Shown: positions 7,417 through 28,280 of the stretch, one piece after another
How the letters are laid out: each line of letters opens with the position of its first letter
Numbering within the stretch: the stretch's first letter is position 1
Origin: Promethearchaeota archaeon
GTDB taxonomy: Archaea; Asgardarchaeota; Lokiarchaeia; Sigyniarchaeales; SOKP01
DNA length: 32,000 bases
NCBI GenBank assembly: GCA_030606485.1
Contig: JAUWGH010000010.1
Location: forward strand, 49,317 to 81,316
Reading direction: 5' to 3'
Position numbers and translations under genes: made by a program
The notes under the pieces: model-generated
Seen by the model: only the letters and a program-made list of their open reading frames with translations
Told to the model about the DNA's origin: nothing
The model's database searches: none

Positions 7417-8445
7417 ATGAGTAAAATCAATCGAAGGAAAAAAAATAATAAATGGAATACATCAGAAAATGAAGAAGTAAAAAGATATTATTTATTGGGT
7501 AATAAATTTCTTGAACAAAGAAATTTCCAAGAAGCAATAATCTATTATAAAAAAGCATTAGAAATTGATCCTCAAGATATATTAACACTTTCTAATTTAG
7601 GCCGAGTATACCATCATTCCTATGTTCTGCAATCATCAACTAAAGATCTGAGTTTATTGGACAATTCTGAAGCTTGTTATCTAGAAGCAACAAAAATAGA
7701 TCCCAATTTTTGGTTATCATACTTCACTTTGGGAGTAATTAAAATTGAACGGAAAGAATTTTTGAAAGCACTAACATATCATCTGAAATTTCTTACTGTT
7801 TATGAAAAAGCGAAAGTAAAAAACTTCAAAATGTATAATCATGCAACCAATTATATTGTAGAATCCATTAAAAAAGGAAAAATTTCTGTAGAATCATTCA
7901 AAAAATTATTAAATATCTCAATTTCTAAAGAAATATGGACACTATTGGGATACGGTTTGCTACATAGTCAATTATATGAATCTGCCGAATTATGCTTTCT
8001 TAAAGTAATCGAAAAACACCCGGATTATTCTAGTGGATACATTGATTTGGGAAATGTGTATATTGAGATGATTAAAAATATTCCCGATTATTGTCCTAAT
8101 TTTAATAAAATTAAAAATTATCTTAAAAAAGCCGTCGAGCTTGACACTAACAATGAAATTGCATGGAATAATCTTGGAACATATTACACATTTGTTGATG
8201 ATTTTGAAAAAGCGAAATTTTGTTATAAAACATCAATCAAACTCAAAAATTACTGCATAACTCCATGGTATAGTCTTGCAAGTATTCTGGTCAAGAAGGG
8301 TTTATATAAAGAAGCAATAAAATGCCTAAAAAAAGTCGTTCAAATTGATCCAAATTATACCCCTGCTAAAGAAGCGTTGGACATACTTAAGAATAATACT
8401 AAGGAACAATTATCCAGGAAAAGAATTGAATTAAGAATAAATTAA
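7417..8445 (+). CDS. Tetratricopeptide repeat (TPR) protein, 342 aa
   Basis: Multiple 34-aa TPR units, e.g. YYLLGNKFLEQRNFQEAIIYYKKALEIDP, AWNNLGTYY..FEKAKFCYKTSI, PWYSLASIL..YKEAIKCLKKVVQIDP. Confidence 0.92.
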   Translation: MSKINRRKKNNKWNTSENEEVKRYYLLGNKFLEQRNFQEAIIYYKKALEIDPQDILTLSNLGRVYHHSYVLQSSTKDLSLLDNSEACYLEATKIDPNFWLSYFTLGVIKIERKEFLKALTYHLKFLTVYEKAKVKNFKMYNHATNYIVESIKKGKISVESFKKLLNISISKEIWTLLGYGLLHSQLYESAELCFLKVIEKHPDYSSGYIDLGNVYIEMIKNIPDYCPNFNKIKNYLKKAVELDTNNEIAWNNLGTYYTFVDDFEKAKFCYKTSIKLKNYCITPWYSLASILVKKGLYKEAIKCLKKVVQIDPNYTPAKEALDILKNNTKEQLSRKRIELRIN

Positions 8446-8588: not shown

Positions 8589-9269
8589 TTATAATAAAAT
8601 TTTTAATACTTTATCAACACTCGATTTATTTTGCTTTAATCTCCCTGAAAAATAAGTAATTAGGTGATATACACATTCCGAAAGGGTATTGTAATTAAAA
8701 GTAAGGCAGGCAAGCTCAACTTCATAACTTGCGATATGCTTCTGCTTAGCTTTATCAAGAGCGTATTTTGCTAGCTTTATCGTATTTTTATGTAATGGTC
8801 GTAGCTTTTTAATTTGAGCAATTTTCTTTTTCTCCTGTTTAAATTCCTGATTTGTAAGGTATACAACGTCAACATAACATTTGGGATTTAAAAAATCTAT
8901 ATGGACAGCCTTGTCCCCCATATGCACTTTAGAATTCTTCTTAAATCCTTTTTTAGCCCTCTCTAAAAGATCCTTTCGAATAGTATTCTTATTTTGATCT
9001 TTGCCAGTACAAAAAATTATGTCTAAATCGCTCTTCCTAATATCTGTTCGCTTCCCTCGTGATCCACCTTCCTTTATCGCTGCGATTTTAAAACCTGTAG
9101 TCTTTCGTAGGAAGTTCATAACTCGGTTTAATTTCGAATCATATAATGTCTGGGTTTGAGGATCGGTATTAATTTTCTTTAAAAATTCTTTAAGCTTTCT
9201 ATTCTCTAATTTCTTAAGACTACTCGTTTTTTCCACCTTTGTATATTTATTGAAATAGTATTTTAACAA
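8589..9269 (-). CDS. Compact cGAS/DncV/OAS-like (SMODS-type) pol-beta-superfamily nucleotidyltransferase
   Basis: Signature IKEGGSRGKRTDIRKSDLDIIF (hG[G]S..K.T....SDxD, close to the OAS motif VKGGSSGKGT..GRSDAD), third Asp in CYVDVV, C-lobe helices IKLAKYAL and IASYEVELACL. The start is uncertain (TTG 9269 or GTG 9236). Confidence 0.8.
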   Translation of the reverse strand: MLKYYFNKYTKVEKTSSLKKLENRKLKEFLKKINTDPQTQTLYDSKLNRVMNFLRKTTGFKIAAIKEGGSRGKRTDIRKSDLDIIFCTGKDQNKNTIRKDLLERAKKGFKKNSKVHMGDKAVHIDFLNPKCYVDVVYLTNQEFKQEKKKIAQIKKLRPLHKNTIKLAKYALDKAKQKHIASYEVELACLTFNYNTLSECVYHLITYFSGRLKQNKSSVDKVLKILL

Positions 9270-9448
9270 GAAAATTCGACTATTTAAATTTATCTTACTT
9301 TTTAAGGATCCTTGTTATGGATATCCTTTTGATATATATTCTAAAACTAGATTTTTGTTTTTTCTTAATGTTAGATATTTTGATAGTCTGATTTACATGA
9401 AATAGAGACATCGTTATTTTTAATAAATTTCCAAATTTTAATCAAAAA

Positions 9449-9552
9449 AGAAGGATAAAGCCCGTTGGTATTTATTTCCTCTAAAAAACGAGGTTAAGGG
9501 CATTGGCGAAAACATTTCGAATATAAATACCGATTTTTGACTTTATCCTTAC
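9449..9552. repeat. Palindrome-ended intergenic element B (related to element A)
   Basis: Outer IR AAGGATAAAG (9451-9460) / CTTTATCCTT (9541-9550); inner IR GGTATTTAT (9467-9475) / ATAAATACC (9523-9531); right end TTTGACTTTATCCTTAC identical to element A. Confidence 0.6.
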
Positions 9553-9622
9553 AGAAACAATTGATAAATATGTATAAAAAGATCACAATTTTTCTTCGCT
9601 CTCTCAAATTTTTTAAGGGGTA

Positions 9623-10150
9623 TTAAGAAGAAATTTTCATTTCAGCGATTCTTAGCGCAGCCTTTAGAATGGGCATTATTTTTTTTTTAATTTTATGTCG
9701 GGTTAACTTGCTTTTAAGGCATTCAAATTTATCCTCTTTTTCCTCGTTTTCTTCGCAACATTTTCTAGCTTTATCAAAAATGAACAGAAATTGCTCGGAA
9801 TATGGTTTATCTTTCTGAAATTGATAACTAAAAATCTCATCATCATCAAGGGATTTGAAAAACGCTAAACAAGGAATTTTTGTATAACTAATGCCTAACT
9901 CTTTCATTAAACTAAAAATCTTGACTGGGGGATTTGGATCTTTTAAATCGTCTAAAATAAAGACGAATACGTCCTCACCGGACATGTCGTCTAAAATATT
10001 GTAGGATTGGATGACGTAATTTCTTAATTTCTCATGATCCTTATTATATAACAGTAAAGCATATAAATTCCTCCAAGAATTTTTGATTTCCCCCCAATAT
10101 TTGTATAAGTCATTAATGTCCATAGTTGGTTTAACAAATATTGCTGCCAT
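9623..10150 (-). CDS. Hypothetical protein, 175 aa, possible thioredoxin-like alpha/beta fold without CxxC, basic amphipathic C-terminal helix
   Basis: ORF track; strand/helix pattern LYALLLY..helix..LDDMSGEDVFVFIL..LMKELGI..IPCLAFF. The fold call is inference. Confidence 0.7.
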   Translation of the reverse strand: MAAIFVKPTMDINDLYKYWGEIKNSWRNLYALLLYNKDHEKLRNYVIQSYNILDDMSGEDVFVFILDDLKDPNPPVKIFSLMKELGISYTKIPCLAFFKSLDDDEIFSYQFQKDKPYSEQFLFIFDKARKCCEENEEKEDKFECLKSKLTRHKIKKKIMPILKAALRIAEMKISS

Positions 10151-10246
10151 TTAAATCGCTCTATTGTCATGAAATGCTAATAATAAACTATTGTTTTTGA
10201 TCTATTAAAAATATTTTGACACCCAAGTCGACACTTGAAATTAAAG

Positions 10247-10339
10247 AATCAATCAGTTAAACTAACCAAGAACTTACAATTTTTACAATATATAAAAGGA
10301 TTATGAACCTTTAATTGTAAAGGAGTCTCGCATTTGGAA
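10247..10339 (-). repeat. Direct repeat R2 (3' end of the intact Zn-ribbon gene)
   Basis: 89/93 identical to 8445-8537; offset 1802 bp. Confidence 0.95.
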
Positions 10340-10518
10340 CATATAATATTTCTTTCAGGAATAAGACCTACTATAAACTGACATTCACCGCAATAGACAA
10401 AGGGCTTTTGAACCTCTAATTCGAAGGGCTTATCGCAAGCCGGGCATCTAGCACTATGCTCATGAAAAATAGTTTCAATCCCTTCTACATTGTAAATATT
10501 CATTACTTCCGAATACAT
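10249..10518 (-). CDS. Double zinc-ribbon small protein (four CxxC pairs), probable start MYSEV at 10518
   Basis: CPAC..CGEC..CSKC..CKNC; internal duplication CxxC-x-P-x6-PF[VI]YCxxCxF[IL]V. The paralogue at 11912 also starts MYSEV, which supports this start over 10530. Confidence 0.85.
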   Translation of the reverse strand: MYSEVMNIYNVEGIETIFHEHSARCPACDKPFELEVQKPFVYCGECQFIVGLIPERNIICSKCETPLQLKVHNPFIYCKNCKFLVSLTD

Positions 10519-10669
10519 TTTCCATATCATTCTTTTAGTTAATATTCTGTATTAGGGATTTTAAAATACGCATATTTAAAGAAAAAATTTGAAGTGATTT
10601 GAATTGAGAGAATTTTTTTATTTAAATATCATGAGTTAAAATTACCATTAAAACAAAAAATGATGTATC

Positions 10670-13987: not shown

Positions 13988-14162
13988 ATAATAATTAAGA
14001 TCAATTAAACAATCTTGATCATATAAAATCGAGTATCGCACAAAATTATCCGAGTTAAACTATTATAAAGTAATTTTAGATTAAAATTATAATCAAAGAT
14101 TCTTATTTTTCTTAAGATAATAAAATAACTTGATCTATCAAAAGAAAATTTACTCTCTTAGA

Positions 14163-15815
14163 ATGAGTCAGAGAAAAGTCCTAAAAGGTATAATACAATT
14201 TGGCAAGAGGGAATTCAAGGAAAAAAAACCCCTCTCTGTGGAGATCTTAAGAGTAAAAAGTAAAACGATTCTCACGAGAGGAGTTTTACCATCTCTTTCT
14301 ATAAAACAAATTAAGGGAGCTAAATATTTAGTGGTCACAGATTATAAAGAATTCTTTAGAGTCTATCCATTTTCTTCTTCTGGGGTATTATTAGGCGGAC
14401 AAAATTTAGAAAAGACGGCAAAATTATTGAAAGCATTGAAAAAAGGTACTGCAAAGGAATACACATTACCTAAAGAACTGCCAAAACTAACATTAGGAGA
14501 TCTTTCTGTTCATTATCAGGAACAGTTTTATAAAGCACAACAAAGCCTAAATGATGTATTTGGATTAAATATTAATTACCCACTTTCGATTGCTGCCTTC
14601 AAAAATTCAAAGAAGGTTAATAAAAGAGAATTATGCGTTCAGAGAAATAAAACATTTTTAAAGATTGATATAAAATATTGGAAAACGCCAATATCTGAAG
14701 TAATTACCCATAGAGAGTTAATCTATTATTTTCTTAAGAGAATGGGAATCTTTCCGAAAAATAAAGATTTAATGTTTGATTTTTGTTATTTTTTTACTGC
14801 AATATTATTAAGAGGCGAAAAAGCAGAACAAATATTTGAATTATGGGAAACTGTATCACCAGAATGGAATATAAACGATTATGAACTCAACCTTATGGAA
14901 AATAAGAACCAAATTTTAAAATTAATAAATGAAACATATACAGAAAATGAGTTAAAAACATTCATAGGAAATGTATTTTCCACCATAGAGATATTAAATA
15001 AATATAAGATTTTAATCAATTCTGAAGAATTCCTGTCGCTTTTTAAATATTTTTATCACAGATTTCAGAAATTAAATACTACAATAATCTTTGAAAAAGC
15101 CAAATTGAAAGAAATTATAGTAATTCTTCGAGATTTATTCTTTTCTGCATTATACCAGAAATATTTCTATCCCCAAGATTTTGAAAATCTGTTAAAAATT
15201 AAGGAAAATGCTAATCAATTTAAGAACTTCTTAAAGTTAACTCATTTAACTATTATCTTTTCCATTTTAGGTGGCGAATTTCATTATATCAGAGAACTTA
15301 AATCTAAATATCCTGTTCTTAAGCAAGAAGAATCTCTTGAAATGTTATTTGGACTTCCGGAGTATAAATTATCAAGCGCAATTAGATATTTTAGTGATAA
15401 AACAAACATATCTAACAATATCTCTAATTTTCAAAAATTATTACAAGATATGTTCAAATCCTATATATTCAATTATTGTCTTGAAATAAATTATGATTCT
15501 GCATTCTTCTGTGATACCAAACCTAATGAAACCAAAATATTACATATAGAAGTTTTTAATCACTCAGATATAGTCCTTAAAGATACCACGCTAAATTCTG
15601 TTATGAATCCAAAAAATAGGATGGACTTAAAAATACTTAAAGACTCTAACTATGAGGATTTAGATAAAAAACTGGAGTGGGAATATGAATTGACTGGTAA
15701 GATAGAAGGAAAAGTTAATTTCTCCATTCAATTGGTAATAAAAGACCCTTTTATTGAAAGTAATATATTTAAATATAAGAAAAAGTTAGGCGTTATAATA
15801 ATTAGAGAGAAATAA
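14163..15815 (+). CDS. Large hypothetical protein (~550 aa), helical middle, C-terminal Ig-like beta-sandwich (probable start ATG 14163; track start 14130)
   Basis: Long ORF; the C-terminus has alternating beta-strand patterns (ILHIEVFNHS..LEWEYEL..VNFSIQLVIKDP). No catalytic motif recognised. Confidence 0.8.
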   Translation: MSQRKVLKGIIQFGKREFKEKKPLSVEILRVKSKTILTRGVLPSLSIKQIKGAKYLVVTDYKEFFRVYPFSSSGVLLGGQNLEKTAKLLKALKKGTAKEYTLPKELPKLTLGDLSVHYQEQFYKAQQSLNDVFGLNINYPLSIAAFKNSKKVNKRELCVQRNKTFLKIDIKYWKTPISEVITHRELIYYFLKRMGIFPKNKDLMFDFCYFFTAILLRGEKAEQIFELWETVSPEWNINDYELNLMENKNQILKLINETYTENELKTFIGNVFSTIEILNKYKILINSEEFLSLFKYFYHRFQKLNTTIIFEKAKLKEIIVILRDLFFSALYQKYFYPQDFENLLKIKENANQFKNFLKLTHLTIIFSILGGEFHYIRELKSKYPVLKQEESLEMLFGLPEYKLSSAIRYFSDKTNISNNISNFQKLLQDMFKSYIFNYCLEINYDSAFFCDTKPNETKILHIEVFNHSDIVLKDTTLNSVMNPKNRMDLKILKDSNYEDLDKKLEWEYELTGKIEGKVNFSIQLVIKDPFIESNIFKYKKKLGVIIIREK

Positions 15816-16144: not shown

Positions 16145-18706
16145 CTATATTTTTTCTTTAATAAATTCAAGAATAGAATTAAGAACAATATTACCAATGC
16201 TTAAACCGATACCTTTAGGAATGCTCAACCCCAAAGGTATTAATACATACTTAAATATTTTAAATACTGTTCTTCCTACTTTTTTAATCTTACTATCTCT
16301 CTCAATTAAATAAGGACCAACAAAACTCATAAAAGGAAGCCGTTCCTCATTTAACTTAGTTTCTCCATCAATTCTTATATAAAGTTCTTCAATAGTACTT
16401 GGTTCAGGAGCAAAAATATCAAAAGAACAGATAAAGTTTTGACCCACATTAATATTAATTCCATCTGGTGATAAAAATTCATAATAACTATCCTTTTGCT
16501 GCTCAAAATTTACCCTCTTTCCCTTTATTACAGCATCAAGAGGTTGAAGGTTTACGCCCATATTTTTTATTTCAAATGGAATTTTCGAATCAGTTATTAC
16601 AGATACTTTAAATCTTTCTCCAACCATTATTTTTGATTCTGTCTCTCTTGAGTCCTCAAATAATAATATTCCTTGTAATAATTGACCAATTATTATACTT
16701 GCAACCGCATTTAGATTAACTTTAATTCCTTCAATTGTACCAAGTTGTTTTTGGGTTAAATTCGCACTTGTTCTCACCAAATTATAAATATTTTTAGAAA
16801 TCTGTTTATTAATTTCGACCATTTCATTTAGATTATTTAGTTTTGATATTTCTGAGAGGATTTGAGAATATTGATGTATATTTAATTTAGATAATGCTCC
16901 CAGTTCCTTCTGAATAGATTCCCATAGATTTGCCATATTTCCGGTTATTGTATATTTTACATCTTTTATTTCACTAATCAATTCTTGCTTAGTATCATCA
17001 ATTTTCATCGATATTCTATTTGTCTCTAATCCAATTTCTTTTTTCACATCATAATACATACGTTTTAATCCTCTACTTATCTCTAAAGTTTGGTATTGAC
17101 TAACTCTTTCTAACCTTTCAAACATTTCTTCTTTGAAATTTTTCAATTCTTGTTTATATCCAATTTGAATTTTCTTTGTAAAATAACCATCTAAATCTTG
17201 AGTAACTCTTAATATTTGTAATAAAGCTGCTTTTTTTTCTGGAGGTATTACTTCGATAGAATTATATTCTTGTATACTACGAATAAAAGTGTCGAGAGAA
17301 TTTACCACGATAATTAGTTTTTTAAGATCCCATTTTTCAAAAATATTCTTTGTTTCTCCTAATTCTTTCAAATCTACTTTCTCAAATTCTAACGCATTTC
17401 TTAAAGAATTAAAGCATGTTTTTTTAGCTTTTAATAATTTTATTACATCTTCTGGAAATACTTTATTTTCAAACTCTATTAATTTATTATTTATTTGTTC
17501 TGAAATAATTATGGCATTGTCTTGTAATTCAATGAAAGTTTGACTATCTATACATTCTAAAAATTGTGTATCTAAAGGCTCTAATTGATTCATTAATTCT
17601 AAGATATTTTTAGTCCATAATTCATATTTATTTAATTTTTTTATATCATTAACAAATAGATCAGAATCTCTTTTTATAAATTGTTCTCTAGCTTTCCTAA
17701 ATTTAAATAAGGCTTCATTAAACTTGTGTAAATGAATAAATACTACACCTAAATTTCCATAAGCATCTGCACATGTTGGATCGCTCTCTATTGCTCTCTC
17801 ATAGCATTTGATTGCCTTGTCAAAATCACCAAGTTCAGAGAATGCAAGACCTTTATTATTCCACGCACTTGCACATGTTGGATCGATCTCTATTGCTCTC
17901 TCATACCAATTGATTGCCTTGTCAAAATCACCAAGCTCGGCGCATGCAATACCTTTATTATTCCACCCTCTTGCATAATTTGGATCGATCTCTATTGCTC
18001 TCTCATAGCATTTGGTTTCCTTGTCAAAATCCCCAAGCTTAGAGAATGCAATACCTTTATTATTCCAGGCATATGCAAATGTTGACTCGATCTCTATTGC
18101 TCTCTCATAGCAATTGATTGCCTTGTCAAAATCCCCAAGCTTAGAGAATGCATTACCTTTATTAAACCATACCTCTGCATGATTTGGATCGATCTCTATT
18201 ACTCTCTCATAGCATCTGGTTGCCTTGTCAAAATCCCCAAGCTTAGAGAATGCATTACCTTTATTATTCCACGCATCTGTAAATGTTGGATCGATCTCTA
18301 TTGCTCTCTCATAGCAATTGATTGCCTTGTCAAAATCCCCAAGCTTAGCGAGCACATTACCTTTATTATTCCACGCACCTGCATAATTTGGATCGATCTC
18401 TATTGCTCTCTCATAGCAATTGATTGCCTTGTCAAAATCCCCAAGCTCGGCCCATGCAATACCTTTATTATTCCACGCACCTGGAAATGTTGGATCGATC
18501 TCTATTGCTTTCCCATAGCAATTGATTGCCTTGTCAAAATCCCCAAGCTCAGAGAATGCAATACCTTTATTAAACCACGCATCTGCAAATGTTGGATCGA
18601 TCTCTATTGCTTTCCCATAGCATTTGATTTCCTTGTCAAAATCCCCAAGCTCAGAGAATGCAAAACCTTTATTAAACCACACCTTTGCTTTTTTTTGCTT
18701 TTTCAT
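16145..18706 (-). CDS. TPR-array protein, 853 aa: 9 near-identical plus 1 divergent TPR, helical/coiled-coil middle, Ig-like domain, hydrophobic C-terminal tail
   Basis: Consensus AxAWNNKGxAFSxLGDFDKAIxCYERAIEIDPxx repeated from aa 7. Confidence 0.95.
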   Translation of the reverse strand: MKKQKKAKVWFNKGFAFSELGDFDKEIKCYGKAIEIDPTFADAWFNKGIAFSELGDFDKAINCYGKAIEIDPTFPGAWNNKGIAWAELGDFDKAINCYERAIEIDPNYAGAWNNKGNVLAKLGDFDKAINCYERAIEIDPTFTDAWNNKGNAFSKLGDFDKATRCYERVIEIDPNHAEVWFNKGNAFSKLGDFDKAINCYERAIEIESTFAYAWNNKGIAFSKLGDFDKETKCYERAIEIDPNYARGWNNKGIACAELGDFDKAINWYERAIEIDPTCASAWNNKGLAFSELGDFDKAIKCYERAIESDPTCADAYGNLGVVFIHLHKFNEALFKFRKAREQFIKRDSDLFVNDIKKLNKYELWTKNILELMNQLEPLDTQFLECIDSQTFIELQDNAIIISEQINNKLIEFENKVFPEDVIKLLKAKKTCFNSLRNALEFEKVDLKELGETKNIFEKWDLKKLIIVVNSLDTFIRSIQEYNSIEVIPPEKKAALLQILRVTQDLDGYFTKKIQIGYKQELKNFKEEMFERLERVSQYQTLEISRGLKRMYYDVKKEIGLETNRISMKIDDTKQELISEIKDVKYTITGNMANLWESIQKELGALSKLNIHQYSQILSEISKLNNLNEMVEINKQISKNIYNLVRTSANLTQKQLGTIEGIKVNLNAVASIIIGQLLQGILLFEDSRETESKIMVGERFKVSVITDSKIPFEIKNMGVNLQPLDAVIKGKRVNFEQQKDSYYEFLSPDGININVGQNFICSFDIFAPEPSTIEELYIRIDGETKLNEERLPFMSFVGPYLIERDSKIKKVGRTVFKIFKYVLIPLGLSIPKGIGLSIGNIVLNSILEFIKEKI
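17771..18688 (-). repeat. Nine tandem 102-bp coding repeats (TPR units)
   Basis: Recurring DNA blocks such as GCCTTGTCAAAATCCCCAAGC and GGATCGATCTCTATTGC at 102-bp period. Confidence 0.95.
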
Positions 18707-19403: not shown

Positions 19404-19886
19404 TTAACTTTCAGAATTGACTATTATTTGCCCATCTTTATAATATTCAATAATTGGTTTTTTTTGAAAATCCTCATTTACATAAAAATATACAAATAAC
19501 CCAAATTTATAATCATATTTTTTATCAGAAGTAAGAAATTTAAGTCGTATTTTATCAGCTTTGACCTCTATACTTGATAATAAATATTCAGATTTTTTTA
19601 TTTCAACTGCCAAAAGATTTTTTGATGTTATTCTCTTATGGACAATAATATCAGGTAAAAATTTCTTTCTTTTTGATCCACAGCGTAATTTTTTTGGCTG
19701 AACACCATCTCTATTATATTCACAATCAACATTCCATCCTGGAAATTCTTTTTCAATGTATATTGCGAGTCTAAAGGCAATTGATCTTTCGCTAGAATTA
19801 ATCTTCAATAATATTTTATCCTTTTCTAACACGTTATTTATTGCCTTATTTGTTTTCTCTTTAATTATTTCTAAATCATAACTCAT
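19404..19886 (-). CDS. Stand-alone PD-(D/E)XK superfamily nuclease-like protein, 160 aa
   Basis: SERSIAFRLA..VDCEYNR..PDIIVHKR..LLAVEIKK: the E..PD..E-x-K catalytic arrangement of restriction-endonuclease-like folds. Confidence 0.8.
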   Translation of the reverse strand: MSYDLEIIKEKTNKAINNVLEKDKILLKINSSERSIAFRLAIYIEKEFPGWNVDCEYNRDGVQPKKLRCGSKRKKFLPDIIVHKRITSKNLLAVEIKKSEYLLSSIEVKADKIRLKFLTSDKKYDYKFGLFVYFYVNEDFQKKPIIEYYKDGQIIVNSES

Positions 19887-21407: not shown

Positions 21408-21839
21408 TTGGGGTTTCACTGCACTTATCACTCACTCGAGGTGTTAAAATTAAAACCAAAAATAATTATAGATATTTCTAATATCGCCGGTTATTATAAT
21501 GAATTCCCCCCTAAAATAAAAAATATCGACATAATGTATAACACTTTAAAATATAAATATTGGATCATCGGTATAGCTGATTGGCAACTGTATTATTATA
21601 TTGATTATCTTGAGTCTTATAAAAATTACTTAAAACGAAGAATAATTTTGGAAGCTCCTCCAGGTATTAAGGCAGATATTCTTTTAATAATGAAGGCCAT
21701 TCAGGATGATTGTCCAATAATTACAAATGATAATTTAAGAGATCATGAGGATTTAATTCCCTCAATATCTTGGTTAAAAAATCATAGGATTCCATTTGAT
21801 ATAATTAATGGGGAATTTAGGATTTATTTGTCAAAATAA
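21408..21839 (+). CDS. Zc3h12a/Regnase-like NYN (PIN-fold) ribonuclease domain protein (start uncertain; GTG 21441 possible)
   Basis: IIIDISNIA (D-x-S-N), IAD, KADILLI, IITNDNLRDH, WLKNHRIPF: the acidic tetrad and order of the RNase_Zc3h12a-type NYN domain. Confidence 0.8.
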   Translation: MGFHCTYHSLEVLKLKPKIIIDISNIAGYYNEFPPKIKNIDIMYNTLKYKYWIIGIADWQLYYYIDYLESYKNYLKRRIILEAPPGIKADILLIMKAIQDDCPIITNDNLRDHEDLIPSISWLKNHRIPFDIINGEFRIYLSK

Positions 21840-23105: not shown

Positions 23106-24182
23106 TTAATTTAAAGACATCAAGAACTTCAAAATATTCTTTATCCATCTCTTCCATTGTGGATTTAATATTTTCCATCTTTCTATAGTAATTTTTAGTT
23201 CATTATAAAATGCAGTTCTTTCTTCTTTATTAAACTCTTCTATATCATCCAGAATGATGTTTTTAAATTTTTCAATTTTGATTTTATTGGGATTTTCTAA
23301 GTAGAATGATAATAATACATTTACATAAGATTTAATTCCAATAATCTTATTTTTTTTAATTTCTTTTTTAATTTTCTTTAATTCTTGTAAAATTAATGAT
23401 TCATTTTTCAGTTCATTTAATATCTCGCTGTTAGGTTCTTCTTTCTGAAAATAAAAAATTAATTGTGTTCTATTTTCTTTTAATTTCTTTATTTGTTCAC
23501 GCATTTCTTGGGAATTTAAATCAGGATTGAGCCATGTAGGGAAAAATTTCAAGGGCATTAAAGAAAAATTTTCAAAATAAAATCCTGACGTTGTTATTCG
23601 TGTTGACCAATATCCCAAACCAACCATTACTAACAGTTGTTCGGAATAAGGGAGAGTTAAGCGAGATAAGTGAATCGTAAAATCTTGAGTATCAAACATC
23701 TCATCGAAACGATAGCCAATCTGATAAATCTCTTTATCTAGGTATAGGATACCTTGCAGTTGAGATTTTAAATTCTCATCATTTCTAATCAATTGTTCGT
23801 TAAATATATTTTCTCTCCAAATATTAATATTTGCATATAGAATATTCTTAAGTCTTTCTCGATTAAGATTATATTCATCATAAGGATCTTCGAAATGCTC
23901 CAAGTTTCCTTTTAAAGCGTAAAAATTAAGTATGAATAGCTCTCTAGGTATAGTGTTTTCAATATCTACAAATTGCTTTTTATCAATATCCCAATTTTTA
24001 ATGTTAGTGTGAAGATTCCAAATAGTTTTAAGATTACTTTTATACTTCTCAAACCACCAGCTTATATTATATCCACTTTTATAAGTATCATCAAGACTGA
24101 TTATGTTTAATAAATCCCAAGCAAAATATCCATAATCCTTAATCATTTCACGAAAAAAGTCTTTTAAGATGGCTTCGTCCAT
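23106..24182 (-). CDS. Hypothetical protein, 358 aa, helical with a coiled-coil C-terminal region
   Basis: Long ORF, ATG start with upstream AGGT; no motif recognised. Confidence 0.8.
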   Translation of the reverse strand: MDEAILKDFFREMIKDYGYFAWDLLNIISLDDTYKSGYNISWWFEKYKSNLKTIWNLHTNIKNWDIDKKQFVDIENTIPRELFILNFYALKGNLEHFEDPYDEYNLNRERLKNILYANINIWRENIFNEQLIRNDENLKSQLQGILYLDKEIYQIGYRFDEMFDTQDFTIHLSRLTLPYSEQLLVMVGLGYWSTRITTSGFYFENFSLMPLKFFPTWLNPDLNSQEMREQIKKLKENRTQLIFYFQKEEPNSEILNELKNESLILQELKKIKKEIKKNKIIGIKSYVNVLLSFYLENPNKIKIEKFKNIILDDIEEFNKEERTAFYNELKITIERWKILNPQWKRWIKNILKFLMSLN

Positions 24183-24480
24183 ATTAAATAACCTTTAAAA
24201 ATTTTAATCTATTTTATCTTTTCCTTATTCTGGAAGGTCGTTTCCTAAATTTGTAATTGTATAATAAGAGTGATTTTTATTTTTACTTTTTGCATTTTTA
24301 TTATGTAATTGATATTATTTAATATATCCTTAATATAATTTTCATAATAATATTCCATTGGTTTCAATGAGAATATTTTATTATTTGGAATTAAATACTT
24401 TTGATTAATTAATTCTTGTAAATCTCTAGCCCTATTTACTGTATTTCTTTTTATATCTTATTTCTCAGAATATTCTAACT

Positions 24481-24666
24481 ATGAAAAAAGAAAAGGATAA
24501 AAAGTAAAAATCTCATTTCCAAAATAGGCAAACAGATATAATTACAGAGGATCTGCATAAAAAGGGAACTGTTATAAAAGAAATTGAAAAAAATACGGAA
24601 TTATTAAATGAAATCGAATCAACATATAGTATGCAATTAGATAAAATTCTCTCTAAAAAATTATAA
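24481..24666 (+). pseudogene. Probable decayed gene fragment
   Basis: ATG frame MKKEKDKK*KSHFQNRQTDIITEDLHKKGTVIKEIEKNTELLNEIESTYSMQLDKILSKKL*: protein-like but interrupted by TAA. Confidence 0.3.
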
Positions 24667-24890
24667 ATTATACTTTATCAGTCTTGTTTCTATAAAAATG
24701 ATGGTATCACAACATAAAGATATTATTCTTGAATATTAATCATAAAAGAAGAATGAATGATATCATAAAATAAAAATTTAAATGATCATAAATTGATGAA
24801 TAACGTATAATAAGAAATTCCAGAGAATGGACAAATTTTGTTGAATATACTGATAGAAAAAAATATTATTTATTATTTGGTGATAGATAT

Positions 24891-27800
24891 ATGAGTAATG
24901 ATATTAAAAATAGCAAAGCCTATGAAATTGAAAAGCAAGTAATCATTGATATTGAAGAGGAAATCGGATATAAATTTAATATTCTTGATAAAGAGGAATT
25001 TTTTTATGCATTTCGTCCAATTTTTTATTCATTACTCGATTTAAAAAATGGATGGCCCCCTAATAATGATAAATTGGAAGAGTATCAGGACATAGAAGGT
25101 AAAAGTTTATTAGCAATTGTTATAGAAGCTGATCACATTACTGGACTATCCATTCAAGATGATCCAATAACCCCTATTAAAATCTCACAACTACCTAAAT
25201 CATTTAAGAATTTAAAATTTCTTAAAATTTTGGTTATAGGAAATCGTCATATTATAAATATACATCAATTTTTAGAGCATCTATCGAATTTAGAATTTCT
25301 TTCATTAGCACATACCAGATTGGTGTATGAATCTGGAATTTTTAACAATTTAGAAAACCTTAAAGGTCTAGATCTTGGATATTATTCCAGAAACATTGAT
25401 TTGATTAAGGAAGTTTGTAAAATTACTTCTTTACAAATGTTAGACCTTTCAAGAACAAACTTAAAGGTTATACCAGATTGTTTTCATAATTTATCTAATT
25501 TAAAAATTCTAGATTTGTCAGATAAAAATGATCTTCAATCCTTTCCTAGAAATCTAAAGGAGCTAAATAATTTAGAAATATTAACCTTATATCGAGCAGG
25601 TATTAGTAAAATCCCCGAAGATATTCAATTACCACAAAATCTTAAAGAAATTAACTTTAAACGTAATCCTTTTACAGAATTACCTAACAACTTTGAAGAT
25701 CTGCCAAAATTAGAAAAAATTCAAGTAGATGGTGATGTGATTGCAAACTATATTAGAAAAACCAAAACAGAATTGTATAATGAATTTCAAAAAGATGTTA
25801 AAGATATTAATTTTCACATTCTTTATTCTTTAACTCGAAAGAAGAAAACATTTCTTGATTTATTACTTGAAAATGGGATTAATTATGAAGAAGCTTTACA
25901 TATCTATAAAGACTTACTTCCTCCTATTAAAAAAGGAATTGATCCTTATTTCATAGATTCAGAAGAGGAAAGAGATAGAAAAAAAGCATTTAAAATCCTC
26001 TTAAATAATGATTTAAGATATATTAAATCTTTGCATAATGATTTAAAATGGATTTGTGAAAATCAAATAACTATAAAGAAAGTAGTATTAGAAGAAGATG
26101 ATAAAAAGAGAATAGTTAAGCTAGGCAGATTAAATATTTTTGTTGGAAAGAATAATTCTGGAAAAACTTATACTTTAAAGCAATTGTATGATAAAATTAG
26201 GAAAATAACTCCTGAGGAAGATATGCTTTCTGAAGATGAACCAAGAGATTTTTCTGGTATTGAAGTTGAAAAAAAAGGCGAATATGAACTATTTAAAGAA
26301 GGGGTTGATTGTTTTTACATTCCAAAAAGCAGAATATATAATGATATAGTGACACAAGGTGAGAGAAAGGGTTTTGAAAAATCGTTGAGTGATTTATTAG
26401 ATAATTTTAAGAAATTACAGTCAGAAGCGGATATTTGGTCATTTGATAAAATAATTGAAGTAATTAACTTTTTTAATTCTACTGATGAGGAGATCTCTGA
26501 ATTAGAGTCATCATCAAAAAAATTATTTAATGAGTTCCGTTTAATTTTAAAAAAATGGTTGGATGCACTTCATCTATATTTTCCAGATATCGACCTTAGA
26601 CTTCCAAAGCGTTCTGATTTTAACACAGTATATGAATTTGATTGTAAAGATGCATATATCCCTTCTTTAAGTTATAATTTTAATGAGCTAGGAAGTGGTA
26701 TGCAGGAATTATCTGTATTAATGTTTTTCATAGAACTTTTAAAATACTTGCCACAAATTAGAGCAGGTAAAATAATGGATACGAAAGAATATCATCGTAT
26801 GCTTTTTATTGATGAACCAGATTTAAGTTTACACCCAGAGCTTCAAGAAAAGTTTTTTAATTATCTTATTAATGCATCTCAAAGAATTCAAATTATCTTA
26901 ACAACTCAATCTCCATTTATACCTAAACCAGTTGAGAATCATATTTCTATTAAACTTTTTAGAAAAGACACCACAGGATTTCATTTTGATGAAATAACAA
27001 ATAATAATTTTGTACTTATTCAGGAAGAACTTTTTAGATACCAACCATTAGAAATTGCTTTATATCTCTCAAAAAATAATTATGAATATTTTAAAAAACT
27101 GGATTATAAATCTGAAGAAGTCTCCATGGGATTGTTTACTGAAAAGAGATACTGTAAAGATAAGAACTATTTAGGTCTTTTAAGACTGGGAACCGTAAAT
27201 TGGAATATGGAAGATAGGATATTGCAGAATGCCTACTTTTTAAGTTTTAATCCAAAAACTGTTGATTTAAACGATAGTTTCGATGTAGAACAAAACAATA
27301 AGAAAAGTTTAAGAGTTTTTATTGTTCAGCTTAATAAAATTCCTGATGAAGAAAGAAAGAAACTAATAGATAAATGTAATAAAAACTTAAAAAGTCAAAA
27401 TTCTATTTTAAGATTATTTACTTTATGTACAACAGTATGGGATAAAGAAAAATTAAAAAATTTTATACTTCATTATAATCTGGGACAACAGAATTCTATA
27501 AGTGAAAAAATAAGACAATATCTAAAAGAGATTGAAGAAGATATCATAGAAAATAAAAGTTTAATCCTTTTTTCAGAGAACACTTTACCCTACGCAATTT
27601 TACCATTTTTACTAGACTATTCAAAGAAGAATAAAGTAGTTATTATTGGAGGGATGGAACATTGCACTCTGGGTAATTTTAACAAAATCATAGACAACCT
27701 TAAAAATGAGTTACGAGAAAGATATAAAGATCCAATAAATTACATGGAACTAGAAGTTGACAATCTTATTGACAATGATACTTATCTTAATCAGGCAGTA

Positions 27801-28280
27801 ATAATTAATGCTGATAAATCTTTTACATTTCAGATAAAAAATCTCCCTGTTTATTTTAATTCAATTAAGAGAAGGGAGGGAATTCCAATAATATTAAAAC
27901 CATTATTTAAAAAGATCCAAACTGTTATTGGAAATATTGCAGTATTAATTTGTAAAGATCTTCTTGTAAATTCTGCTGTGATTGACACTTGGATGGATAT
28001 ACACGATATAAAAATACTAGCAACTCCATCTTTCACTAACTTAGTTAATCCTTTTAGAAACAAATTAGGAGAGATTATATCAAATAAAAAGCAAAAAGAT
28101 AAAGTCTTTATTTTTGCAAATATTTCCGAATATGGCGGATCAGGTGCATATAGTTATGTTAATCGGAGAGATTTTGAACCAAATAGAAAGAGTTTATTTC
28201 CATTTTGTTACGAAATTAAAGAAGAAGAATTCCGACATAGTATCGAAAATTGGAGAAAAAAGGATTTTACTTTTCATTAA
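24891..28280 (+). CDS. 1129-aa multidomain protein: N-terminal leucine-rich repeats, ABC-type (AAA_15/AAA_21-like) ATPase, C-terminal carbon-nitrogen hydrolase (nitrilase-fold) domain
   Basis: LRRs LxxLxxLxLxxN at ~25190-25735; Walker A GKNNSGKT (26145-26168); signature LGSGMQEL (26688-); Walker B/D-loop LFIDEPDLSLHP (26802-); switch TTQSP (26901-); nitrilase motifs RVFIVQ (~27312), LFSE896N, QIK983, LIC1021KD, ANISEYGGS. Confidence 0.88.
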   Translation: MSNDIKNSKAYEIEKQVIIDIEEEIGYKFNILDKEEFFYAFRPIFYSLLDLKNGWPPNNDKLEEYQDIEGKSLLAIVIEADHITGLSIQDDPITPIKISQLPKSFKNLKFLKILVIGNRHIINIHQFLEHLSNLEFLSLAHTRLVYESGIFNNLENLKGLDLGYYSRNIDLIKEVCKITSLQMLDLSRTNLKVIPDCFHNLSNLKILDLSDKNDLQSFPRNLKELNNLEILTLYRAGISKIPEDIQLPQNLKEINFKRNPFTELPNNFEDLPKLEKIQVDGDVIANYIRKTKTELYNEFQKDVKDINFHILYSLTRKKKTFLDLLLENGINYEEALHIYKDLLPPIKKGIDPYFIDSEEERDRKKAFKILLNNDLRYIKSLHNDLKWICENQITIKKVVLEEDDKKRIVKLGRLNIFVGKNNSGKTYTLKQLYDKIRKITPEEDMLSEDEPRDFSGIEVEKKGEYELFKEGVDCFYIPKSRIYNDIVTQGERKGFEKSLSDLLDNFKKLQSEADIWSFDKIIEVINFFNSTDEEISELESSSKKLFNEFRLILKKWLDALHLYFPDIDLRLPKRSDFNTVYEFDCKDAYIPSLSYNFNELGSGMQELSVLMFFIELLKYLPQIRAGKIMDTKEYHRMLFIDEPDLSLHPELQEKFFNYLINASQRIQIILTTQSPFIPKPVENHISIKLFRKDTTGFHFDEITNNNFVLIQEELFRYQPLEIALYLSKNNYEYFKKLDYKSEEVSMGLFTEKRYCKDKNYLGLLRLGTVNWNMEDRILQNAYFLSFNPKTVDLNDSFDVEQNNKKSLRVFIVQLNKIPDEERKKLIDKCNKNLKSQNSILRLFTLCTTVWDKEKLKNFILHYNLGQQNSISEKIRQYLKEIEEDIIENKSLILFSENTLPYAILPFLLDYSKKNKVVIIGGMEHCTLGNFNKIIDNLKNELRERYKDPINYMELEVDNLIDNDTYLNQAVIINADKSFTFQIKNLPVYFNSIKRREGIPIILKPLFKKIQTVIGNIAVLICKDLLVNSAVIDTWMDIHDIKILATPSFTNLVNPFRNKLGEIISNKKQKDKVFIFANISEYGGSGAYSYVNRRDFEPNRKSLFPFCYEIKEEEFRHSIENWRKKDFTFH

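Follow-up and report, generated by a model that had tools for sequence, protein, structure and literature searches.

A gene from an Asgard archaeon encodes, in a single chain, a leucine-rich repeat (LRR) array, an ABC-type ATPase and a divergent nitrilase-superfamily domain, and its product is a credible candidate immune receptor of a new, single-protein kind. The gene lies at positions 24891–28280 (forward strand, as for all features below) of a 32,000-nucleotide stretch, hereafter the window, from Promethearchaeota archaeon (Sigyniarchaeales; SOKP01; GCA_030606485.1, contig JAUWGH010000010.1, 49,317–81,316). We judge the product to be probably a cytoplasmic single-chain sensor–switch–effector protein, most likely acting in biological conflict, that is, in antiviral or anti-mobile-element defence. 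We infer the immune function from modularity, patchy distribution and neighbouring genes only. The first-pass annotation, made from the sequence alone, knew of no described system with this domain order, and we likewise found no account of an LRR–ABC-ATPase–nitrilase architecture in the searchable literature.

The open reading frame (ORF) translates into 1129 amino acids plus a stop codon without an internal stop, in agreement with the uninterrupted frame read at first pass. Chimeric assembly, raised there as a risk, is ruled out by the ATPase plus C-terminal arrangement common to more than 30 independent homolog clusters and by metagenome contigs from other studies that span, with no joints reported, both the LRR-to-ATPase junction (X3 record 12, 25496–26780) and the ATPase-to-nitrilase junction (X4 record 22, 26915–27845). 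A full-length copy on an independent contig (P0002) is 96.6% identical. With these three lines against it and nothing found in its favour, we rejected an assembly or gene-calling artefact fusing separate genes, the chance of which we consider negligible.

The region preceding the repeats (residues 1–95; 24891–25175) matched no Pfam family and probably caps the LRR solenoid; at 19–64% identity among homologs it is, with the linker, among the least conserved segments. The LRR array itself (residues 96–285; 25176–25745), the proposed sensor, was recognized by Pfam as the first-pass annotation had read it: LRR_14 (61 bits, 1.1e-16), LRR_8 (50.4 bits, 1.9e-13) and LRR_4 (45.4 bits, 8.5e-12) matched residues 96–281 above their curated cut-offs of 40, 27 and 27 bits, respectively. 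The NCBIfam models XopAC/XopL were matched in their LRR parts only. A linker of unknown family (residues 286–405; 25746–26105) is weakly conserved (15–68% identity among homologs) and had no match among Pfam or PADLOC models. Compared with the more distant homologs P0006 and P0022, the LRR is 32 and 29% identical and the nitrilase 63 and 48%, so that here the sensor part has changed faster than the enzyme part.

Residues 406–700 (26106–26990) form an ABC-type ATPase head with a helical insertion, belonging to the OLD/PtuA/AriA/GajA clade. Within residues 414–677, Pfam matched AAA_21 (58.8 bits, 1.2e-15; cut-off 27 bits) and AAA_15 (53.7 bits, 3.3e-14; cut-off 32.1 bits), and the PADLOC models matched were AriA (the best, 9.7e-19), Old, GajA and PtuA. 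Compared with the PDB, the ATPase profile ranked defence ATPases (PtuA, OLD, AriA and GajA) above a few weak ABC transporters, and the Foldseek neighbours nearest to the predicted structure (pLDDT 78) were retron/Septu PtuA, then SMC/Rad50. The earlier grouping with GajA/OLD, PtuA and AriA was therefore borne out by Pfam, PADLOC, PDB profile and fold alike. The three motifs noted at first pass are all present: Walker A (GKNNSGKT, 419–426; 26145–26168), an ABC signature-like motif (LGSGMQ, 600–605; 26688–26705) and Walker B with the His switch (FIDEPDLSLHP, 639–649; 26805–26837; D641, E642 and H648). Walker A K425 is kept in 30/30 ATPase-bearing homologs, and the G, N, G and K of this motif are invariant in alignment A4. 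The signature has the family consensus GSGTQEL, in which the first G is invariant and the S, G and Q nearly so, and the Walker B D and E and the His-switch H are invariant across the 30 ATPase-bearing members. Judged by sequence, every nucleotide-binding and hydrolysis motif is intact. Pfam and PADLOC detected no Toprim, HNH or DUF4435 nuclease in the protein or its neighbours, which places it outside the Gabija, Septu, PARIS and OLD systems and inside their ATPase clade only. Pfam matched no NACHT/NB-ARC (STAND) domain in the protein; its sole NTPase matches are ABC-type, and the fold is that of an ABC head.

The C-terminal part begins with a conserved helical subdomain (residues 701–800; 26991–27290), helical in the predicted structure and the constant companion of the nitrilase domain, in which G767, T768 and Q779 are invariant. 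It is also found in LRR–nitrilase proteins, where profile coverage starts at positions ~3–49 (mostly 5–20), and it lies (model residues 1–100) outside the part alignable to solved nitrilases. Residues 801–1129 (27291–28277), the proposed effector, were assigned by fold and profile comparison to a divergent nitrilase-superfamily (C–N hydrolase) domain. In the C-terminal model (pLDDT 84, pTM 0.88), low confidence is found in the last ~33 residues. The best 24 chains by VIA-align all belonged to the nitrilase superfamily (Z 15.2–18.6, rmsd ~3 Å, ~220 residues aligned), with the next fold at Z 6.3, and so did the Foldseek top 50, at probability 1.00. Protein-modifying Nta1 (5b62, Z 16.9) and Lnt (8aq2, Z 16.7) matched about as well as small-molecule amidases. 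Profile comparisons agreed: hhalign gave a probability of 88.7% (E 2.5e-6) against canonical Asgard CN_hydrolases, and the PDB match was vanin-1 (E 0.004). Pfam CN_hydrolase (PF00795) scored residues 860–1129 of the protein (P0001) at 11.2 bits (E 0.23), below the gathering cut-off of 23.2 bits; relative P0034 scored 23.0 bits and a paralog in this genome 25.3 bits, indicating a branch too divergent for the present Pfam model to capture. On its predicted structure, the domain belongs to the nitrilase superfamily, with the alpha–beta–beta–alpha four-layer sandwich fold, and the first-pass call of a nitrilase, which with the ordered triad was the most difficult to read from sequence, stands. The accompanying link to defence-associated nitrilases held in part: the match is real but weak, the best PADLOC defence model being RT_UG5-nitrilase (E 1.5e-5; profile 664–740 of 907). 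Structural neighbours among metagenomic models include proteins with a fused reverse transcriptase or a fused nSTAND3.

The ordered E896–K983–C1021 triad proposed at first pass was found exactly as stated, and a probable fourth residue, E996, could be added. We assessed conservation in 34 sequences, down to 23% identity and including members without the ATPase. E896 (LILFSEN, family consensus FPEN; 27576–27578) is invariant (34/34), and hhalign puts it in exactly the same column as E38 of the canonical LPE motif. K983 (FQIKNLP; 27837–27839) is kept in 33 of the 34 and shares its column with the Lys of the Pfam-positive paralog; the direct hhalign against canonical CN_hydrolases shifts it by one column, amid gaps, and its spacing from N967 (16) is the same as in canonical N92–K108. 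E996 (REGIP; 27876–27878), probably the second Glu of an E–K–E–C tetrad, is invariant and aligns with KEGI of the paralog; the loop is longer by 5–6 residues, so we only infer that it corresponds to canonical E115. The predicted nucleophile C1021 (LICKD; 27951–27953) is invariant, aligns exactly with canonical C141 (ICxD) and with the catalytic-site TCFD of vanin-1, and sits between strand and helix in the model, resembling a nucleophile elbow. The alignments thus place Glu, Lys, second Glu and Cys in the canonical order and as putative equivalents of the canonical residues.

The family is rare (1.84 billion proteins yielded 69 representatives) and nearly restricted to Asgard archaea. Its constant unit is the helical plus nitrilase module. 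The architectures counted were ABC–nitrilase (30), LRR–nitrilase (30) and LRR–ABC–nitrilase (14); N-termini are swapped among LRR, Roc-GTPase with LRR, CDC48-N, an unknown region of ~590 residues, or none, P0033 being an ATPase–nitrilase member without an N-terminal module. Such swapping on a constant module is typical of conflict proteins; Asgard proteins of signalling and proteostasis, too, typically carry LRR, Roc and CDC48-N domains. LRR–nitrilase proteins without the ATPase are at least as common as the tripartite form, making the ATPase an optional regulator rather than the chassis. The tripartite reading of the first-pass annotation is thus right in that all three domains share one chain, but the arrangement is a minority one and is not built on the ATPase. 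Among 301 Asgard genomes, full-length matches came to ~3 intact copies and another 3 that are broken (pseudogenized) or split, and the DNA of the gene had no match in four genomes of the same genus. Asgard repeat–nitrilase proteins, by contrast, are found widely across the phylum, with a match to the core in 77 of the 301 genomes. One metagenome-assembled genome carries two copies within a segmental duplication; no viral or plasmid copies were found.

Within the window, a PD-Lambda-3_A homolog (E 1e-30) lies 5 kb upstream of the gene. Homolog loci are often near TIR, HEPN, Schlafen, SIR2, PLD or restriction genes. Neighbours included Schlafen-AlbA_2 (twice); Ras-TIR_2; SIR2_2; Schlafen-NB-ARC; HEPN_Swt1 with CAP12-PCTIR_TIR and PD-(D/E)xK-HTH; PLDc_2 with MNT/HEPN; and a MmeI-type restriction–modification gene with an SMC-like ATPase. 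This is a raw, uncontrolled list, and genes of these kinds abound across Asgard genomes. At two or three loci (P0009, P0037 and P0083), no neighbour was defence-like. An ABC ATPase adjoined the LRR–nitrilase gene at only one of five informative loci. Beside the gene we recognized no integrase, transposase or viral protein, and around it no mobile-element border; no antitoxin-like partner gene was conserved across loci. The surroundings of the gene are AT-rich and hold unknown ORFs. Just upstream, short repeats (24327–24658) recur elsewhere in the genome and in relatives, and the window also holds two large tetratricopeptide repeat (TPR) proteins.

The closest known ATPase, both by PDB profile (E ~1e-10 to 1e-7) and by fold, is PtuA of Septu and of type I-A retrons (Ec78/Eco7, Ec83). 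In both proteins an ABC head with a helical insertion would regulate an effector; PtuA, however, pairs with the separate HNH nuclease PtuB, whereas the Asgard protein lacks an HNH domain and carries a nitrilase-fold enzyme and an LRR array in the same chain. OLD and GajA share its AAA_15/AAA_21 ATPase clade and the position of the effector, C-terminal to the ATPase in the same polypeptide, but their effector is a Toprim nuclease, in place of which the Asgard protein has the helical plus nitrilase module, with no Toprim detected, and they lack LRRs. AriA of PARIS, the best PADLOC model for the Asgard ATPase, is likewise of ABC type; it recognizes a phage protein and has an effector under its control (PMC11464382). 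Unlike the Asgard protein it has no repeat sensor, and it releases a separate Toprim protein, AriB (DUF4435), which is absent at the Asgard locus. On the enzyme side, in DRT1 and UG5/DRT11, too, a regulatory enzyme is fused to a C-terminal effector of the nitrilase superfamily whose catalytic site is intact. DRT1 sets the precedent for a nitrilase effector, its nitrilase domains forming the core of the assembly (PMC13275509), and the nitrilase Cys-to-Ala mutant of UG5/DRT11 loses defence (PMC13436386). These are bacterial systems regulated by protein-primed DNA synthesis, whereas in the Asgard protein regulation would fall to the ABC ATPase and LRRs; we found no RVT match in it, RT_UG5-nitrilase being matched in its nitrilase part only.

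The first-pass annotation had called the protein NLR-like, built on a non-STAND NTPase. The three-part logic of NLRs and Avs proteins, a repeat sensor, an NTPase switch and an enzymatic effector in one chain, is indeed present, and the NTPase is ABC-type rather than STAND. However, the order is sensor–NTPase–effector instead of effector–NTPase–sensor, and the likeness is therefore one of analogy, not membership. The assembly is likely to be a head-to-head dimer rather than the ring of NLRs and Avs. Also related are the Asgard LRR–nitrilase (~550–880 residues) and TPR–nitrilase (~1280 residues) proteins, the latter including the C8 paralog of this genome, which share the nitrilase subtype but have no ABC ATPase. 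In hhalign, the C8 nitrilase matched with a probability of 98.8% (E 1e-16) and all four catalytic residues aligned. The TPR–nitrilase form scores above the Pfam CN_hydrolase cut-off and is also recognized by the PADLOC models CARF_nitrilase and RTasNitrilase.

As a working mechanism, the LRRs would bind a trigger, probably a foreign protein, and binding would alter how the ABC domains, depending on nucleotide, engage one another head to head. The changed oligomeric state may then assemble or unlock the nitrilase domains; to our knowledge, nitrilase-superfamily domains must oligomerize to be active. The thiol enzyme would cleave (or form) a non-peptide C–N bond in an essential metabolite or protein, stopping growth of the infected cell. 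Destruction of a metabolite is one option, and a protein substrate is equally open. GajA has been reported to read the nucleotide pool, and in a variant of the scheme the ATPase might itself do so. Half of the family lacks the ATPase in cis and an ABC neighbour was seen at one in five LRR–nitrilase loci, indicating that ATPase gating is not general. More tentatively, the protein may be the founding case of a class of innate immune receptors peculiar to Asgard archaea. In this class, sensors of LRR (or TPR, Roc-LRR or CDC48-N) type would act on a dedicated nitrilase-fold effector, either straight away or by way of an OLD/PtuA-type ABC ATPase, and the effector would cleave an amide-containing metabolite or protein essential to the infected cell, which would thereby be killed or arrested.

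Some features would also suit a normal Asgard regulatory or signalling enzyme, in which the LRR (or Roc-LRR or CDC48-N) part recruits a cellular protein, the nitrilase-fold domain deamidates, deacylates or acylates that target in the manner of the N-terminal amidase Nta1 or of Lnt, and the ATPase serves as clamp or timer. Signalling proteins with LRR, Roc or TPR parts abound in Asgard genomes, two large TPR proteins being encoded in the window alone; the N-terminal variants include the protein-binding Roc GTPase and CDC48-N; Nta1 and Lnt fit the fold about as well as small-molecule amidases do; and some loci have ordinary neighbours. We nevertheless consider this unlikely, given a distribution that is extremely patchy even inside the genus, the pseudogenized or split copies, the recurrence of defence-type neighbours, and an ATPase clade otherwise drawn, in the PDB, from defence systems only.

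An accessory gene with no same-genus match, set in AT-rich surroundings next to recurring repeats and duplicated in one genome, might also belong to a selfish addiction or toxin module of an unrecognized Asgard mobile element, whose nitrilase toxin is restrained by the ATPase to the benefit of the element rather than the host. The lack of recognizable integrase, transposase or viral genes beside it, of viral or plasmid homologs, and of a conserved antitoxin-like partner across loci makes such a module decidedly improbable. Least plausible of the three is a catalytically dead nitrilase fold acting only as an oligomerization scaffold, with ATP hydrolysis or a partner encoded elsewhere as the output. 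The domain is too divergent for Pfam, and nitrilase domains do form the assembly core in DRT1 (PMC13275509); yet all four catalytic positions persist down to 23% identity, ATPase-less members included, and an invariant Cys nucleophile with a Lys and two Glu is abnormal for a scaffold, leaving this reading very little room.

If the protein acts in defence, ABC-ATPase defence systems would not be bound to nuclease effectors, and nitrilase effectors would gain a context beyond reverse transcriptases, which have been studied experimentally, and CARF proteins, represented by a PADLOC model only. In Asgard archaea, the prokaryotes most closely related to eukaryotes, a single chain would then link an LRR sensor with an enzymatic effector, which would bear on the origin of LRR-based intracellular immunity. 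The modularity of the family, with and without the ATPase, with different sensors, and with no N-terminal module in P0033, offers natural comparisons of the role of each part, and points to a much larger uncharacterized set of Asgard repeat–nitrilase proteins. Were the receptor-class reading true, the ABC ATPase would be a third NTPase chassis of NLR-like receptors, beside STAND and the known ABC–nuclease systems, and LRR-based intracellular sensing would be placed in the archaeal lineage closest to eukaryotes.

The gene occupies window positions 24891-28280 (+) as one open reading frame of 1129 codons with zero internal stops, in surroundings of ~26% G+C that are as AT-rich as the rest of the window. 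All three ABC-type ATPase motifs reported by the first-pass annotation were recovered in the translation (GKNNSGKT, residues 419-426; LGSGMQ, 600-605; FIDEPDLSLHP, 639-649), as were its proposed nitrilase triad residues, E896, K983 and C1021. That annotation had raised the possibility of a chimeric assembly. A second 1129-aa copy, 96.6% identical, lies on another contig, and dozens of homologues have the same domain arrangement. Metagenome contigs from other studies cross both junctions: one (X3 record 12, 25496-26780) runs from the LRR through the linker into the ATPase, and another (X4 record 22, 26915-27845) from the ATPase through the helical segment into the nitrilase, with no joints reported in either. 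Given this independent copy, the many similarly arranged homologues and the contigs from unrelated studies, a chimeric assembly is rejected.

Judged by sequence alone, the case for a C-terminal nitrilase would be weak. In a whole-protein Pfam scan this domain had no match, and the isolated segment gave a sub-threshold alignment to CN_hydrolase (11.2 bits, E = 0.23), the sole hint from Pfam at E up to 10. A phmmer search of the C terminus against PDB returned coronavirus 3CL proteases with no E value better than 0.25, which we treated as noise. An AF2 model of the domain built from 29 homologues had a pLDDT of 84 and a pTM of 0.88. In an exhaustive structural search with this model, the top 24 chains belonged to the nitrilase superfamily (Z 15.2-18.6, rmsd ~3 Å over ~220 aligned residues), the next-best fold being metallophosphoesterase at Z 6.3; all of the top 50 Foldseek matches were likewise nitrilase-superfamily enzymes (50/50). 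A profile of the family matched vanin-1 pantetheinase in PDB (E = 0.004), setting the ICKD Cys on the TCFD motif of vanin. Aligned by hhalign with a canonical set of nine CN_hydrolases from related Asgard genomes, the domain scored a probability of 88.7% (E = 2.5e-6), E896 pairing with the Glu of the LPE motif and C1021 with the Cys of ICxD. Relatives bridge the remaining distance: P0034, which lacks the ATPase, reached 23.0 bits on PF00795, and a 1277-aa paralogue in the host genome aligned with the family (probability 98.8%, E = 1e-16) with matching positions for all four catalytic residues (Glu, Lys, Glu, Cys). These four independent lines (fold, PDB profile, canonical-enzyme profile and bridging relatives) establish that the C-terminal domain, in its fold as in its catalytic residues, belongs to the nitrilase superfamily, in agreement with the original reading, and that it forms a divergent branch outside the Pfam model.

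In the direct hhalign comparison K983 fell one column off the catalytic Lys, within a gapped stretch; counted without gaps, the Asn-to-Lys spacing is equal (N967+16 here versus N92+16 in the canonical enzymes). Across 34 sequences reaching as low as 23% identity, E896, E996 and C1021 never vary and K983 is retained in 33. In alignments with homologues, canonical enzymes and the paralogue, the ordered Glu-Lys-Cys triad that had been proposed is present and conserved. A conserved helical subdomain spans residues 701-800, with G767, T768 and Q779 invariant; it is constantly paired with the nitrilase fold but is not part of the segment that superposes on solved enzymes. A homodimer prediction for the C-terminal module gave a median of 0.27 against a mark of 0.42, a value that speaks neither for nor against dimerization.

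Upstream of this module, LRR_14, LRR_8 and LRR_4 scored above Pfam cut-offs across residues 96-281; NCBIfam offered the LRR parts of Xanthomonas effectors only, with scores far under their cut-offs, and no family was found for residues 1-95 and 286-405. The ATPase (residues 414-677) matched AAA_21 (58.8 bits) and AAA_15 (53.7 bits), both above the Pfam cut-off. Its top PADLOC models were AriA, Old, GajA and PtuA, and a profile of the ATPase region of the family retrieved PtuA, OLD, AriA, the retron Eco8 OLD nuclease and GajA from PDB, along with two ABC transporters that ranked among or directly after the weakest GajA matches. Nearest to its AF2 model (pLDDT 78) were the retron and Septu PtuA folds, followed by SMC/Rad50 heads. 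The Walker A Lys, the Walker B Asp-Glu and the LHP His are conserved in 30 of 30 ATPase-bearing homologues. The ATPase thus belongs to the PtuA/OLD/AriA/GajA clade, the class first proposed for it, as Pfam, PADLOC, the PDB profile and the fold all indicate.

An exhaustive HMMER search of 1.84 billion representative proteins found 69 relatives of the C-terminal module (36 clusters in a word-indexed search). Almost every genome record carrying the module is a MAG from Promethearchaeota or Helarchaeota, with Odinarchaeota also represented, and at source the members are named 'AAA family ATPase', 'leucine-rich repeat protein' or 'hypothetical protein'; one fragment carries the name 'CN hydrolase domain-containing protein'. 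Every match in an ESM Atlas feature search fell below 0.9, and these were kept as leads only. In an architecture census of proteins of at least 500 aa, using HMMs from our own alignments, 30 proteins joined the ATPase to the helical-nitrilase module, 30 joined LRRs to it, 14 carried all three parts and 4 had other architectures. Ahead of the ATPase, the N terminus can be an LRR, a Roc GTPase with LRR (P0038), CDC48-N (P0032), an uncharacterized region of ~590 aa or nothing (P0033). Since N termini vary and the census shows LRR and ATPase each to be absent from some members, the helical subdomain and nitrilase are the invariant unit, to which LRR and ATPase can be added singly or together as regulators; tripartite proteins are in the minority. 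Conservation is higher on the enzyme side than on the sensor side in the more distant homologues P0006 and P0022; identity to P0006 is 63% in the nitrilase, 38% in the ATPase, 32% in the LRR and 15% in the linker.

Several relatives have features of their own. The 1277-aa paralogue (G000:C8:398841-402674, +; L028:2342-6175) consists of ~950 aa of TPR-like helical repeats, in which no P-loop motif was found, and a C-terminal nitrilase that passes Pfam CN_hydrolase (25.3 bits); in PADLOC it matched CARF_nitrilase (2.9e-15) and RTasNitrilase (5e-12). A search of 301 Asgard genomes matched its nitrilase core in 77, in proteins of ~880 aa and ~1280 aa that are often multicopy within a genome, and the type constitutes a large uncharacterized repeat-nitrilase family. 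The MAG GCA_019058395.1 encodes two tripartite paralogues, P0008 and P0009 (L013:8588-13339 and L042:8586-13336), apparently as part of a segmental duplication. The duplicated block also takes in helicase genes on the downstream side and two genes on the upstream side, one for 300 aa and one for 121 aa; the 121-aa product gave a weak match to Pol-beta nucleotidyltransferases (E = 0.009). P0033 (806 aa; L016:4454-12421) begins 24 bp past an uncharacterized 699-aa gene, which in turn overlaps by 1 bp the stop codon of a gene for a 1140-aa Pkinase+AAA_11/AAA_12 helicase; this may be a three-gene operon with a separately encoded sensor.

Full-length matches among the 301 Asgard genomes were confined to the source genome and two others, with three more copies split or bearing stop codons. 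Within the genus, no match to the module was found in G001 (100% complete), and G002 and G003 matched only through the TPR-nitrilase type of the paralogue; none of the four same-genus genomes (G001-G004) had a DNA match to the gene, though they match the window in other parts. Recent transfer between genera was rejected, the strong other-genus match (L030) being just 35% identical. No viral or plasmid homologues were found in IMG/VR, INPHARED or PLSDB, sets that contain few Asgard viruses.

Most other ORFs in the window have no family. A 160-aa PD-Lambda-3_A homologue (19404-19886, -; PADLOC E = 1e-30, 104.8 bits) lies 5 kb upstream of the gene; it had no Pfam or PHROGs match, and no PD-Lambda-3_B partner was recognized among the ORFs scanned. 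The window also encodes a weak SMODS-like nucleotidyltransferase match just below cut-off (226 aa, 8589-9269, -; E = 1.7e-5), a borderline Zc3h12a-like NYN ribonuclease (143 aa, 21408-21839, +; 23.1 bits versus a cut-off of 23), and two TPR-rich proteins, of 853 aa (16145-18706, -), which also matches the TPR-S 'sensor' model, and 342 aa (7417-8445, +). A 561-aa ORF without a family (14130-15815, +) is a multi-copy gene of uncharacterized nature, its DNA recurring at 82-87% identity at two or more same-genus places (G003 C231 and C430; G002 C132). Integrase identity of the divergent upstream gene (23106-24182) was rejected: Phage_int_SAM_6 was below cut-off (E = 4e-4), and PDB, PHROGs and PADLOC were unsupportive. 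In the 708-bp upstream gap, short AT-rich stretches at 24327-24658 recur in the host genome (C10 and C13; 85%, ~70 bp) and at several same-genus sites (78-85% identity), and look like a small dispersed repeat; one metagenome has a depth spike of 143x at 24544-24687. Promoter and terminator scans, using bacterial-type models, were at chance level. No RNA data set was among the sequencing runs listed as containing this DNA, a result that is neutral as to expression.

Around homologues, defence-type neighbours included two Schlafen-AlbA_2 genes; Ras-TIR_2 and DUF6602; HEPN_Swt1, CAP12-PCTIR_TIR and PD-(D/E)xK-HTH; PLDc_2, an MNT/HEPN pair and a kinase-helicase; SIR2_2; and an MmeI-type R-M enzyme with an SMC-like ATPase, each set at a separate locus. 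The locus of P0060, an LRR-nitrilase protein, has an Avs-like Schlafen-AlbA_2 + NB-ARC/nSTAND3 + TPR protein and a PNP_UDP_1 + UQ_con fusion (L044:816-2837, 8714-10594). Nothing defence-like was found at three homologue loci, and the tally, made without a background control, is suggestive rather than statistical. The LRR-nitrilase gene P0035 is followed by a gene for a 767-aa AAA_15/21 ATPase, whose extra ~360 aa matched no family. This adjacency is a weak hint of a split system with the ATPase in the neighbouring gene, a reading we rejected as general: an ATPase neighbour occurs in only one of five informative LRR-nitrilase loci.

The protein shares its ATPase clade with Septu, Gabija, PARIS and OLD, but lacks the nuclease that defines them and is not a member. 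The description 'NLR-like' holds as an analogy, for the union of repeat sensor, NTPase and effector in one chain; membership among NLR or Avs proteins does not, as the STAND NTPase is absent and the domain order is reversed. Nor is it a DRT, having no RT, although its nitrilase shows weak similarity to UG5-type nitrilases. Among metagenomic models, the structural neighbours included Promethearchaeota TPR proteins, bacterial RT-fused proteins and nSTAND3-fused proteins, with CN_hydrolase annotated in only 2 of the 10 clusters listed; on these models, the neighbours would fit a domain reused as an effector. In the literature searched, to which the ABC-ATPase classification of Krishnan et al. 2020 did not belong, we found no published description of a protein that joins an ABC ATPase or LRRs to a nitrilase, in conflict systems or otherwise.

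A single chain unites repeats, an ABC ATPase of the defence clade and a nitrilase-fold enzyme, the last two with complete motif sets. Two ABC heads clasp ATP jointly, one contributing Walker A and its partner the signature motif, so that nucleotide state controls dimerization, and the active form of nitrilase-superfamily enzymes is an oligomer. Ligand binding to the LRR could change ATP-dependent engagement of the heads; altered engagement would assemble or unlock the nitrilase active sites, and the enzyme would then remove or make a C-N bond in an essential molecule. Alternatively, the ATPase may read nucleotide levels, by analogy with GajA, which reportedly does so. In DRT1 the nitrilase is activated, then locked, by assembly state (PMC13275509), and in UG5/DRT11 the nitrilase Cys is essential for a defence that behaves as abortive infection (PMC13436386). 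The fold does not single out a substrate: its matches to small-molecule amidases and to protein modifiers (Nta1, Lnt) are of about the same quality.

Because LRR-nitrilase proteins exist without an ATPase, usually with none next door either, the ATPase is a regulatory add-on and not an obligatory relay. The architecture is real and well supported, a new combination built from known kinds of parts, and the fusion protein is a plausible candidate for an immune role.
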